From Escherichia coli (GTDB taxonomy: Bacteria; Pseudomonadota; Gammaproteobacteria; Enterobacterales; Enterobacteriaceae): a DNA stretch of 64,000 bases. The stretch lies in NCBI RefSeq assembly GCF_044647545.1, contig NZ_CP172818.1; one strand, written 5' to 3'. The notes beneath the pieces were generated by a model. That model was not told the origin of the DNA. It worked only from the letters and a program-made list of their open reading frames with translations, and searched no databases. The translations under genes and the position numbers were made by a program. Shown one piece after another: positions 840 to 48,365 of the stretch. Numbering within the stretch: the first letter of the stretch is position 1; each line of letters opens with the position of its first letter.

Positions 840-3191
840 TCAAAATAGCCCAAGTTGCCCGGTCATAAGTGTAGCAAAATTATCCTCAATAAAAGGGAGT
901 ATTCCCTCCGCCACGGGTTGTAGCTGGCGGGTCAGATAGTGTTCGTAATCCAGCGGTGAACGTTGATAGTCCAGCGGCTCCGGGCCGTTGGTGGTCCATA
1001 CGTACTTAATGGTGCCGCGGTTCTGATATTGCAAGGGGCGACCGCGCTTTTGATTTTCTTCATCGGCAAGGCGAGCGGCGCGTACATGAGGCGGAACATT
1101 ACGCTGATATTCGCTCAGCGGACGGCGAAGGCGTTTTCGGTAAACCAGCCGCGCATCCAGTTCACCCGCCATCAGTTTGTCGATGGTTTCGCGGACGTAC
1201 TCCTGATATGGCTCGTTGCGGAAGATACGCAGGTACAGCTCCTGCTGAAACTGCTGGGCCAGCGGCGTCCAGTCGGTGCGCACGGTTTCCAGCCCTTTAA
1301 ACACCATCCGCTGTTTATCGCCCTCCTGAATCAGCCCGGCATAGCGCTTTTTGCTGCCCGTATCGGCTCCACGAATGGTTGGCATCAGAAAACGGCAGAA
1401 ATGGGTTTCATACTCCAGTTCCAGTGCGCTGGTCAGCCGTTGTTTTTGCAGCGTTTCCGCCCACCAGGCGTTAACGTGCTGCACCAGTGCACGACCAATT
1501 TTCGCCGCTTCTTCTTCCGAATGTGCGCCTTTCAACCAGACAAACGTTGAGTCGGTATCGCCGTAGATCACGTCGTAGCCCTGCGCTTCAATCAACGCTT
1601 TGGTTTGCCGCATGATCTGATGACCACGCATGGTGATCGACGACGCCAGGCGCGGATCGAAGAAGCGGCAGGCGGTGGTGCCAAGCACGCCATAAAAGGC
1701 ATTCATAATGATCTTCAGCGCCTGCGAAAGTGGCTTATTACCCTGACGTTTGGCTTCATCGCGCCCGTGCCAGATGTTAGTCACAATCTCTGGCAGGCAA
1801 TGTTTCTCCCGTGAGAACCAGGCATCGAGAAAACCTTCGGTGCTGTGCTCTGGATCAGGCTGCGCCATGCCTTCCACCAGCCCGACGGGATCAATCAGAA
1901 AGGTGCGGATGATCGACGGGTACAGGCTTTTGTAGTCCAGCACCAGCACCGAATCATAAAGTCCTGGCCGCGAATCCATCACATAGCCGCCAGGGCTGGC
2001 GTGTGGCGGCACTTCGCCGAGATTGGGCGCGACATAACCAGCGCGATGCATACGGGGAAAATAGAGATGACCAAACGCTGCCACCGAACCGCCGTGTCGA
2101 TCTACCGGCAGGCCGTTCACCGTCGCCCGTTCGAGCAAAAACGGCATGATTTCAGTTTTGTGGAAGATCTGCGTCACCAGCTCGCAATCTTTCAGGTTAT
2201 AAGTTGCCAGCGCAGGCTTATCTTCGGCGAAACGGCGGTCAATTTCGTCCATTCGATCCCACGGGTTATCGATAGATTTTCCTTCGCCTAATAACTCCTG
2301 AGCGACGGTTTCCAACGAGAATGAAGAGAAATTCCAGAACGCGGATTTCAGTGCCTCGATACCGTCGATAATTAGCCGACCTTTAACCTGAGCAAAAAAC
2401 ACACCGTTTTTAAAGCCGTGCTCGCGCCACTCCAGCTCGCTGTTATCACGCCCCAGACGCAGCGGAATACGGTAACGCTCGGCATGTTTTTGCAGCATTC
2501 GCAGATCAAACTGCACCACGTTCCAACCGATGATCACATCAGGATCGTAGTTGGCAAACCAGGCGTTAAGTTTTTCCAGTAGCTGCGGGCGGCTGGCGAC
2601 GTATTCCAGTTCGAAATCGAGCGCGGAGGCGTCGCCATTCTCTGGCCCCAGCATATAAACGATGCGCTGCCCGCAACCTTCCAGGCCGATGCAGTACAGC
2701 TCACCGTGGCGGGTGGTTTCAATATCAATAGAAACCCACTTGAGCGGCGGACGATAGTCGGGATGCGGTTTCAGACGGGCATTAACGATAGCGTCATTGC
2801 GTATATCACCCTCGACCCACACCGGTGAGGTGATAAACCGCTCCATCAGATAGCGTTCTGGCGGGCGCACATCGGCTTCGTAGACGGTAACGCCACCTTC
2901 ACGCAGGCGCTTTTCGTAATTCATCAACTGGCGATGGGCGCGACAGTAAAGGCCATACACCGGCTGGCGATGAAAATCCTTTAACGCCAGCGGCGTCAGG
3001 CGAAAGCCTTGCTCACCCTGCAAAATATGCTGGGCGCGGGGAACCTGATCGGCGGGAATAAACGCCACGGACTCTTGCGGCGCAAGCGTAACCTGCAACG
3101 GCCCGTTGTCCGTCGCTAACCAAAAGGAAACTTCGGTTCCTTGCGGGGTATCCCGCCAGTGTCGGGTTAAGATAAAACCTGCCTGCGCCAC
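840..3191 (-). CDS. polB: DNA polymerase II
   Basis: 783-aa [21 protein letters not shown]..., B-family polymerase; length and synteny as in E. coli. Confidence 0.95.
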
Positions 3192-3207
3192 GCTGAAAAT
3201 CCAATAA

Positions 3208-3237
3208 AAAACCAGGCTTGATTATAGCCTGGTTTCG
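3208..3237 (-). terminator. hairpin plus T-run after araD (araBAD terminator), upstream of polB
   Basis: Inverted repeat aaccaggct/agcctggtt followed by a T-run when read on the minus strand. Confidence 0.55.
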
Positions 3238-3265
3238 TTTGATTGGCTGTGGTTTTATACAGTCA

Positions 3266-3974: not shown

Positions 3975-4138
3975 TGCCGGATGCGCTTTGCTTATCCGGC
4001 CTACAAAATCGCAGCGTGTAGGCCTGATAAACTCGAAAATTTATCGGTCAAAATGCATACCGCGCTCGCATCAGGCGGTGAATGCCGGATGCGCTTTGCT
4101 TATCCGGCCTACAAAATCGCAGCGTGTAGGCCTGATAA
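3975..4138. repeat. REP/BIME-type palindromic units in the araA–araD intergenic region, including a 56-bp perfect direct repeat
   Basis: tgccggatgcgctttgcttatccggcctacaaaatcgcagcgtgtaggcctgataa occurs at 3975..4030 and again at 4083..4138; the gccggatgcg...cgcatcaggc motifs are typical REP. Confidence 0.8.
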
Positions 4139-12925: not shown

Positions 12926-13119
12926 GGCGTTAGTGTAGTGATTTTGTTATCAACCAGCAATCATAGAGAAGGCGTATTAAAAAAGCCAATATTCGTTCAG
13001 CTATCAAGGACGTATTTGCATAGCTGGGAAGCTTTGAACCGAAAGAATCCCTTAGCACAGTCAAAATCGGTAATGCAACCTTATTGCGTGAATGACGATT
13101 TTTGACATATTCTTTCAGG

Positions 13120-13712
<593 letters not shown>

Positions 13713-13713
13713 G

Positions 13714-15369
13714 CGATGGATCCGGCGGCGCAAACCACGCTGATTTAAAATCGAACCAGCCGAGGGTGTTCATACGTAGACCGCGCATACTGCGTTGCCC
13801 CTGAATGATCAGCCAGTGGTGGATAAGCGGCACCATTGCTTTGCTGGCGACCAGTTGCTGGCACCAGTTCGCCAGGTTCATTTCGCCATTGCGCCAGCGG
13901 GCGGCGTCGGCTTGCCAGTCGATGGGAAGACAGTGTTGGAGCAGCGGCACCTCGCACAAGTGCGCGAACAGCGAAAAATCCAGCGGCAGCGTAAAGTTGG
14001 CGCTGTTAAGCCAGATATCGCTCTCGATCTCTCCTTCATGCCACTGATCGTAGCTGATCTCTTTGATTTCCAGCGTGACCTGGTGACTTGCCAGAATCTG
14101 CTGCATGATCCCGGCAATCACTCGATGCTCAATATGATCCTGATAAAAGGTCAGGGTGAGGCTTTCCAGCCCGGCGGGTTTTTCGCAATGTGTCGGACGA
14201 GCATGGTGCCAACGGGGGAGCAGTCCATAAGCCGGGAACCACAGTTGCTGGTACTGTTCCTCAGCGAAATAGACCAGATTAGTTGGAGAAAGCACATAGC
14301 TTACCCAGTCCCTGACTTGCTGATTCGCCCCGCGATGGGTGCGGCTGTCGAACAGTAAATAGTAGCAACCTTCCTCCAGGCGGCTTTCAATCTCTTTTTC
14401 CTCGCCCTGTGGCCCTTTTAGCATCAGCCCTCCGGCTGGCTCGTCGGCAATTTCCGGCAGAACCCAGACGTTAACTTCGTCGATTAATGCCCGGTAACCG
14501 AAGAAGTCATCGAATGCCTGAATTTTCAGTTGATTGGTGCTGTTGCGGATCACCGCATACGGACCGGTGCCGATGGGATGGCTGGCAAAGTTACTGAGGG
14601 TTTCCCATTCGCGCGGCAGGATCATCGCCGGAACTTGCCCCAGCAGTAACGGCAACCAGCGATCCGGCTGCGTGAGGTGGATATCCAGCGTCCAGGGCGT
14701 CGGCGATACAATTTCAGCAATATGCGAATAGAGCGGCAGCGTATTGATCCGTTTTAAAGAGGCGATCACATCGTCCATTTCCAGTTCACGACCATGATGA
14801 AAATGGACTCCTGGACGCAAAAAGAAACGCCAGTGAAGCGGTGATATTTGCTGCCAGTGGTGGGCGATGTCTGCTTCCAGTTCCCCATTTTCCTCATTTA
14901 TGCGCGTTAGCGAACTGAAGATTTGCCGGGCGATATGGGTTTCGGAACGACGCAATGCACTGCCGGGCAGCAGATTACGCAACGGACGATAGTAGAGAAC
15001 GCGCAGGATGTGCCGCCCCTGGCGGAAGCTGCGTCCCAGATGAGAAACCAACATTTGCCGCACAGCCGCTTTGTCGCCAACCAGTTGCACCAGTTGATCG
15101 ATACGATCCTGCTCCAGCAGGTCTTCCGCCCGCTGTTGCTGAAGCGCCAGCCCGGTATAGAGGAATGTCAGACGCGAGCGTTTACCGCGCCCGACTTCCG
15201 CTTCCCACGTCAGCCAGCCGCGATCCTGCATGGTGTTGAGCAGGGTGCGCATATGACGACGCGAGCAACTCAGTAACGCTGCCAGTTCGTTGAGCGTGGT
15301 CTCCTGCGATTTACCCTCGCAGCATTGCCACAGGCGGATGAACTGTTGTTGCAGACGAGCAGATGGCAT
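13714..15369 (-). CDS. sgrR: sugar-phosphate stress transcriptional regulator SgrR; 3' end uncertain because the frame runs into the low-complexity tract
   Basis: Track ORF 13660..15390 (576 aa); start set at [15 protein letters not shown]; remembered length 551 aa would place the native stop near 13714, but here the frame continues ...[22 protein letters not shown] into homopolymer sequence. Confidence 0.8.
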
Positions 15370-15436
15370 AAAAGGGGAACTCCTGCGCAAAAGTCAGCAA
15401 TTTTATTTTCCCTATATTAAGTCAATAATTCCTAAC

Positions 15437-15663
15437 GATGAAGCAAGGAGGTGCCCCATGCGTCAGTTTTATCAGCACTATTTTACCGCGACAGCGAAGT
15501 TGTGCTGGTTGCGTTGGTTAAGCGTCCCACAACGATTAACTATGCTGAAGAACTGATGCAGTGGGAGGGGAGTCATTCTGACTACTGATTTGCGGACATC
15601 ATGTGTGACTGAGTATTGGTGCTAATCGCCACGCCAGCAGTGATTATTGCTGGCTTTTTTCTT
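15437..15663 (+). ncRNA. sgrS: small RNA SgrS (glucose-phosphate stress)
   Basis: Starts gatgaagcaagg 67 bp from the divergent sgrR start; conserved seed gtgtgactgagtattggtg at 15602..15620; hairpin ccagcag/ctgctgg plus T-run at 15633..15663. Confidence 0.8.
15458..15556 (+). CDS. sgrT: small protein SgrT encoded within sgrS, 32 codons here
   Basis: ATG after ggagg RBS; MRQFYQHYFTATAKLCWLRWLSVPQRLTMLKN; shorter than the 43 aa I recall for K-12. Confidence 0.6.
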   Translation: MRQFYQHYFTATAKLCWLRWLSVPQRLTMLKN

Positions 15664-15687
15664 TGGCGATTGAGCCGACGGGACAAA

Positions 15688-17704
<2,017 letters not shown>

Positions 17705-17706
17705 GA

Positions 17707-20369
<2,663 letters not shown>

Positions 20370-47881: not shown

Positions 47882-48271
47882 ATGAAAAAGCTGCAAATTG
47901 CGGTAGGTATTATTCGCAACGAGAACAATGAAATCTTTATAACCCGTCGCGCAGCAGATGCGCACATGGCGAATAAACTGGAGTTTCCCGGCGGTAAAAT
48001 TGAAATGAGCGAAACGCCGGAACAGGCGGTGGTGCGTGAACTTCAGGAAGAGGTCGGGATTACCCCACAACATTTTTCGCTATTTGAAAAACTGGAATAT
48101 GAATTCCCGGACAGGCATATAACTCTGTGGTTCTGGCTGGTCGAAAGCTGGGAAGGGGAGCCGTGGGGTAAAGAAGGGCAACCCGGTGAGTGGATGTCGC
48201 TGGTCGGTCTGAATGCCGATGATTTTCCGCCAGCCAATGAACCGGTACTTGCGAAGCTTAAGCGTCTGTAG
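47882..48271 (+). CDS. mutT: 8-oxo-dGTP diphosphatase (Nudix)
   Basis: 129-aa ORF with Nudix box GGKIEMSETPEQAVVRELQEEVGI. Confidence 0.95.
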   Translation: MKKLQIAVGIIRNENNEIFITRRAADAHMANKLEFPGGKIEMSETPEQAVVRELQEEVGITPQHFSLFEKLEYEFPDRHITLWFWLVESWEGEPWGKEGQPGEWMSLVGLNADDFPPANEPVLAKLKRL

Positions 48272-48277
48272 GTCAGA

Positions 48278-48365
48278 TAAGACGTTTTCGCCGCATCCGA
48301 CATTCGCACACGATGCCTGATGCGACGCTCCGCCCGCGTCTTATCAGGCCAGCGTCGCATCAGAC
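48278..48365. repeat. REP palindromic unit(s) in the mutT–yacG intergenic region
   Basis: Inverted motifs gcctgatgcgacgct / agcgtcgcatcaga and ggtcagataagacg / cgtcttatcaggcc. Confidence 0.75.

Follow-up and report, generated by a model that had tools for sequence, protein, structure and literature searches.

Probable loss of the SgrT peptide and retention of the SgrS small RNA in an Escherichia coli clade that includes a strain named ST648

Introduction

What remains of a dual-function small RNA when the reading frame of its peptide is found to stop after 32 codons? SgrS is the well-known sugar-stress small RNA of Escherichia coli, and its gene is activated by the product of sgrR. A 64,000-nucleotide stretch of E. 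coli DNA (contig NZ_CP172818.1 of RefSeq assembly GCF_044647545.1, hereafter the window) carries an sgrS gene whose embedded sgrT frame had been described, in an earlier note made from the sequence alone, as only 32 codons long. The same note suggested that the riboregulator was probably preserved and that SgrT might be truncated or non-functional. With alignments, covariance and protein family models, fold predictions and a survey of 5426 complete E. coli genomes, we asked which half of the locus is broken, how widely the lesion is shared and whether it could be explained otherwise. We consider it very likely that, in the clade concerned, SgrT is truncated with loss of the peptide function while the RNA regulator is retained.

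The SgrS locus in the window

The RNA is recognised without difficulty by the Rfam family RF00534, scoring 212.4 bits where the gathering threshold is 37 (E = 2.4e-59), and the covariance model is matched end to end (positions 1-232 of 232). The surroundings are those of the family: sgrS stands divergent from sgrR behind a conserved intergenic promoter region, which is the same as in strain ST648 and differs from K-12 by two substitutions, and leuD follows just downstream of SgrS. From window position 13717 onward, sgrR is 99.96% identical to its counterpart in strain ST648, where the annotation (L005) places it at 13921-15579. It is complete apart from the last two codons or so and the stop, which are lost in homopolymer garbage. 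The features of the locus are collected in Table 1.

Table 1. Features of the sgrR-sgrS locus, in window coordinates
Feature	Position	Strand	Basis or remark
sgrR	13711..15369	-	divergent from sgrS; ORF list and comparison with ST648
sgrR-sgrS intergenic region, with sgrS promoter and SgrR operator	15370..15436	+	alignment A4
SgrS RNA, full length, non-K-12 (CFT073/O157-type) allele	15437..15661	+	RF00534
sgrT Shine-Dalgarno sequence AAGGAGG and inverted repeat GGAGGTGCCCC	15445..15457	+	alignments A1 and A4
truncated sgrT frame, 32 codons and TGA	15458..15556	+	translation, alignment A1, Pfam PF15894
3' end of sgrT, out of frame since the deletion	15557..15588	+	other frame reads EELMQWEGSHSDY-stop
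base-pairing seed for ptsG and other SgrS targets	15603..15621	+	conservation in A1
small hairpin UGGUG/CGCCA, first of the Hfq-binding 3' module	15617..15631	+	fold prediction
intrinsic terminator (stem GCCAGCA/UGCUGGC, then six U)	15633..15660	+	Rfam and fold prediction

A single missing nucleotide in sgrT

Translation from the ATG at 15458 to the TGA at 15554-15556 gives MRQFYQHYFTATAKLCWLRWLSVPQRLTMLKN-stop, a product of 32 residues that bears out the length first reported; the same reading also forms the tail of an open reading frame listed at 15290..15556. The K-12 derivative BW25113 encodes MRQFYQHYFTATAKLCWLRWLSVPQRLTMLEGLMQWDDRNSES-stop, that is the 43 residues ending in TMLEGLMQWDDRNSES that the earlier note had given for K-12. 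In the pairwise alignment with K-12 sgrS which that note had proposed, the MG1655-type sgrT differs from the 32-codon version, and the predicted one-nucleotide frame difference near codon 30 proved to be a single deletion: one T of GCTTGAAG is missing between window positions 15545 and 15546, in sgrT codon 30. The missing T (GC[T]TGAAG) is visible against both O157:H7 and K-12 in alignment A1. By its loss, CTT-GAA-GAA-CTG-ATG is recast as CTG-AAG-AAC-TGA, so that Leu30 is retained and is followed by Lys, Asn and the stop. Residues 1-30 are those of K-12 SgrT. The lost C-terminus can still be read in another frame as EELMQWEGSHSDY, with a stop at 15586-15588, and the listed open reading frame 15451..15588 accordingly terminates in ...AEELMQWEGSHSDY.

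Distribution and annotation of the frameshift

A 40-mer centred on the deletion was matched exactly in 57 of the 5426 complete E. coli genomes, and the same number of genomes, 57, are at least 99% identical to the window over positions 13000-19000. Genomes with the frameshift include the strain named ST648, MS6198, IMT16316, ECONIH1 and FDAARGOS_497. IMT16316 and MS6198 are probably ST648 as well; the label is used here on the strength of the strain name 'ST648' and of this attribution. Over 36 kb the window and strain ST648 are 99.96% identical. The identical 32-residue product is further encoded on a contig of the Logan read assemblies (L010), itself 99.96% identical to ST648, and on an ENA metagenome contig (L009). 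Judging from these matches, the frameshift marks a small clade of E. coli to which the strain named ST648 belongs. In this clade the pseudogene is on record in RefSeq annotation: sgrT was labelled a "frameshifted" pseudogene by NCBI PGAP in all three carriers that were opened (NZ_CP033850.1, NZ_CP008697.1 and NZ_CP023815.1). In the collection of papers searched, none mentions ST648 together with sgrT.

The metagenome contig L009 has an unusual composition. In a comparison of its positions 2980-3250 with window 15437-15700, the middle part of sgrS is of the non-K-12 type and has the frameshift, the terminator is of the K-12 type, and the contig carries setA. Either natural mosaicism or a chimera made in assembly could account for this; unless the contig is chimeric, the breakpoint between the alleles would lie at or just past the seed.

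The allelic background

The earlier note had also pointed to roughly 40 nucleotides downstream of the frame change that looked different from K-12. The difference is real and corresponds to a published allele. K-12 SgrS and its homologues in CFT073 and O157:H7 share 88% identity (Horler & Vanderpool 2009, PMC2760817), and both types are abundant: of the 5399 complete genomes in which sgrS was matched, about 2157 fall in the class 95-100% identical to the window sgrS, with actual values of 97-99.6%, and 3242 are of the K-12 type, in the class of 80-90% identity with actual values of 83-88%. The intact form of the window allele encodes ...TMLEELMQWEGSHSDY. On this comparison of alleles, the divergence, which begins at sgrT codon 32 and extends to the terminator, is a matter separate from the frameshift, and belongs to the common non-K-12 allele.

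With the K-12 SgrS/SgrT system (Wadler & Vanderpool 2007; RF00534; PF15894), the window shares the site, divergent from sgrR and between thiB and leuD, a near-identical promoter region, SgrT residues 1-30, the seed, and the two 3' hairpins with their U-tail. Its sequence differences from K-12 are concentrated between SgrT codon 32 and the terminator; it differs further by GGAGG in place of GGGGG in the Shine-Dalgarno hairpin, by the absence of setA downstream of sgrS, by the presence in the clade of espY2 upstream of sgrR, and by its SgrT of 32 residues. The CFT073/O157:H7-type sgrS (PMC2760817) is the same allele as that of the window, with 97-99% identity, and O157:H7 likewise lacks setA. 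[quoted passage not shown] The SgrS RNAs of Yersinia and Photorhabdus have no sgrT and act as riboregulators only (PMC2760817, PMC2760806); the sgrT region is wholly absent there, while in the window it is present and broken by a recent one-nucleotide lesion.

On another aspect of the background, the type of sgrS terminator tracks the presence or absence of setA. The idea that sgrT lesions track the absence of setA was contradicted by two contigs which carry setA: L009, with the frameshift, and L007, with an amber codon in sgrT.

Effect on the SgrT peptide

Relatives of SgrT were collected by an exhaustive phmmer search and aligned (family alignment A3). The best conserved block of the C-terminal half is ML[E/D]xLMQW; LMQW is found in 14 of 16 full-length sequences, and its W is at least 90% conserved. 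This motif lies downstream of the break, and all SgrT sequence past Leu30 is lost through the frameshift. The product ends in ...MLKN at residue 32, and is thus not a full-length SgrT, which measures 40-57 residues and carries the ML[ED]xLMQW block. The retained residues 1-30 account for the greater part of the invariant positions (F4, Y8, F9, W17, L18 and L27). The product is still recognised by the Pfam family PF15894, with 36.5 bits against a threshold of 27, on profile positions 1-30 of 46 only; the intact protein is covered over positions 1-36, with 50 bits. Among NCBIfam models, none matched either the full-length or the truncated SgrT.

Translation of the shortened frame is probable. 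In K-12 the hairpin GGGGGTGCCCC inhibits sgrT translation (PMC2760806), and the corresponding repeat of the window, GGAGGTGCCCC, differs from it by an A for a G in column 13 of the alignments (A1/A4). Since the truncation removes ML[E/D]xLMQW, the peptide so produced is probably inactive, and the PtsG-inhibiting function of SgrT has most likely been lost. The published work on the interaction (Kosfeld & Jahreis 2012) mapped only its PtsG side (KTPGRED), and our literature search found no experiment in which an SgrT lacking its C-terminus was studied.

Conservation of the RNA regulator

The seed and the terminator, which the earlier note had described as intact, are confirmed as such, with the reservation that the terminator loop is one nucleotide short in the window only. 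The seed GTGTGACTGAGTATTGGTG is that of K-12 and is invariant in the aligned sequences having this region (A1). A 15-nucleotide deletion in EBJ001 takes away its leading GTG, and the seed is invariant from TGACTGAG on. It is complementary to the ribosome-binding region of ptsG, as expected from a member of RF00534. The ptsG gene of the source genome lies outside the window. Among the complete E. coli genomes, 61 nucleotides of ptsG leader and start, with a query following the published sequence, are at least 99% identical in 5420 of 5426.

The 3' module is likewise present. The terminator stem pairs 15633-15639 with 15648-15654 and is followed by the U-run at 15655-15660; fold prediction gives two hairpins and six U (z-score -3.0). 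The K-12 and O157 alleles are predicted to fold into two adjacent 3' hairpins as the window does, despite the divergence of the sequences, with GGUG/CACC in K-12. The promoter, the seed, the double 3' hairpin, the U-tail and the conserved ptsG target site all point to an RNA whose function should be retained. In K-12, cells recover from stress even when the sgrS allele that they carry has no sgrT (PMC2760806).

Fold prediction also pairs the 5' and 3' parts of the sgrT coding region in a long helix (15458-15565). This helix is predicted at -48.8 kcal/mol in the window, at -46.8 kcal/mol with the T restored and at -48.7 kcal/mol in K-12, which has the T; the whole SgrS is predicted at -83.3 kcal/mol, and at -81.3 kcal/mol with the T restored. 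The deletion thus turns the predicted helix into a more regular stem, steadier by about 2 kcal/mol than the T-restored form.

Sequence quality of the window

Outside one cluster of deletions, the 36-kb alignment with strain ST648 shows four substitutions and one insertion. The cluster, at 15647-15682, holds six events amounting to 8 nucleotides, with no substitution relative to strain ST648 and all close relatives, and it spans the terminator loop of SgrS and the sgrS-leuD spacer. One of its deletions, between 15647 and 15648, shortens the terminator loop by one nucleotide; it is unique to the window, a 40-mer drawn over it being found in none of the 5426 complete genomes. The short loop is probably a sequence artefact, and the terminator stem is unaffected by it. 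A second suspect stretch, the sole one of its kind in the window, consists of about 600 nucleotides of homopolymer-rich nonsense at 13115-13716. It replaces 843 nucleotides of ST648, among them the stop codon of sgrR and espY2, a gene for a type III secretion effector, and is preceded from 12961 by progressively denser deletions of 1-2 nucleotides. A pattern made of deletions only is unlike natural divergence, and both stretches are probably local artefacts of assembly or base calling. Single-base oddities in the window should therefore be verified against related genomes before they are interpreted.

Two other differences from strain ST648 or within repeats were noticed, an insertion of about 24 nucleotides at 4034-4065 in the araD-araA spacer and a CC insertion at 48331 inside an Rfam match to naRNA4, a REP-type element (48271-48350). 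Both are probably ordinary variation of repeat elements.

Alternative explanations

With such stretches nearby, the missing T could be suspected of being an error of the source record, sgrT being really intact: the nonsense at 13115-13716 has every appearance of an artefact, and the deletion cluster lies only about 100 nucleotides past the frameshift. Yet 57 complete genomes, sequenced independently, have the very same deletion, as have contigs L010 and L009, and its site is a TT dinucleotide with no long homopolymer. An intact sgrT hidden by an error is extremely improbable, and as the cause of the frameshift a sequencing error was ruled out by the junction 40-mer that 57 of 5426 genomes share. 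It is scarcely conceivable that ribosomes would produce full-length SgrT all the same through a programmed -1 frameshift where the T is missing. The only support for such a recoding is the downstream frame, which is open to EELMQWEGSHSDY-stop, and the site (ACT ATG CTG AAG AAC TGA) holds no slippery X-XXY-YYZ heptamer. The deletion could also have been selected at the RNA level for a steadier helix between the ends of sgrT, the loss of the peptide being a side effect. The predicted weakening of the helix and of the whole SgrS on restoration of the T would agree with this, but a difference of 2 kcal/mol is inside the noise of prediction, and K-12 attains practically the same helix energy with the T present. 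To our knowledge, the helix has no function besides limiting sgrT translation. Selection of this kind seems very unlikely, and we regard the predicted stabilisation as incidental.

A more substantial question is whether the 32-residue peptide could still be a working, or partly working, inhibitor of PtsG, which would preserve the dual function of the locus. It keeps 30 of 43 native residues with the six invariant positions named above, scores above the Pfam threshold for SgrT, and would be translated from a GGAGG free of the translation-blocking hairpin of K-12 and better exposed than there. Against these points, the lost ExLMQW is the part of the C-terminal half that the collected homologues conserve best, and the gene is annotated as a pseudogene by NCBI. 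Residual activity has some chance on this balance, and we judge it unlikely. A truncated peptide that has lost its activity beside a retained RNA regulator is the reading we prefer.

Discussion

The locus is the SgrR-controlled dual-function small RNA SgrS, in the form of a common non-K-12 allele that has lost one T in sgrT codon 30, a deletion fixed in the E. coli clade to which the strain named ST648 belongs. Under our preferred reading, translation from the strong AAGGAGG would end after 32 residues (...TMLKN), without the conserved ExLMQW segment. The RNA side would be kept, and under glucose-phosphate stress the seed would still undergo Hfq-dependent pairing with ptsG and further targets. 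The probable support given to the riboregulator by the earlier note, and its doubt about SgrT, thus agree with the seed, the terminator stem and the frameshift described above.

There is precedent for such a division, as O157:H7 has lost its sgrT start codon and the K-12 sgrS without sgrT remains able to rescue cells (PMC2760817, PMC2760806). After O157:H7, the present clade would be a second clonal E. coli lineage with the peptide half broken and the RNA half kept. [quoted passage not shown] If the reading is true, a multidrug-resistant extraintestinal clone would stop glucose uptake under sugar-phosphate stress by base pairing alone.

One could go further and propose that certain niches select against SgrT, for instance because it relieves inducer exclusion, and that it does not simply drift away. 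This suggestion derives from the independent loss of sgrT in at least two pathogenic clones, by ATG to ATT in O157:H7 and by the frameshift in the ST648-containing clade, and from other truncations in read assemblies; we find it quite unlikely.

Among these other truncations, an SgrT of 34 residues ending in ...MLEELM, with CAG changed to TAG at codon 35 (Q35), was seen on Logan contigs L006, L007 and L008 (1501-1605; P0051), in three different sgrS haplotypes. The variant is listed in 212 blocks of the collection searched and is found in none of the 5426 complete genomes on either allele background, for which reason it was not counted in support of repeated loss. Either a mutation that recurs or an error made systematically in assembly could explain it.

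A last variant occurs on a single NCBI contig of 1,163,547 bp (P0004), whose SgrT reads ...WLSVPTTINYAEELMQWEGSHSDY. It corresponds to the frameshifted allele of the window clade with, we infer, an insertion of one C at codon 24 (CCC to CCCC). Such an insertion would bring the LMQW tail back into frame, at the cost of six changed residues. Were SgrT indeed selected against in some niches, this restoring change, from a single genome, would point to fluctuating selection.
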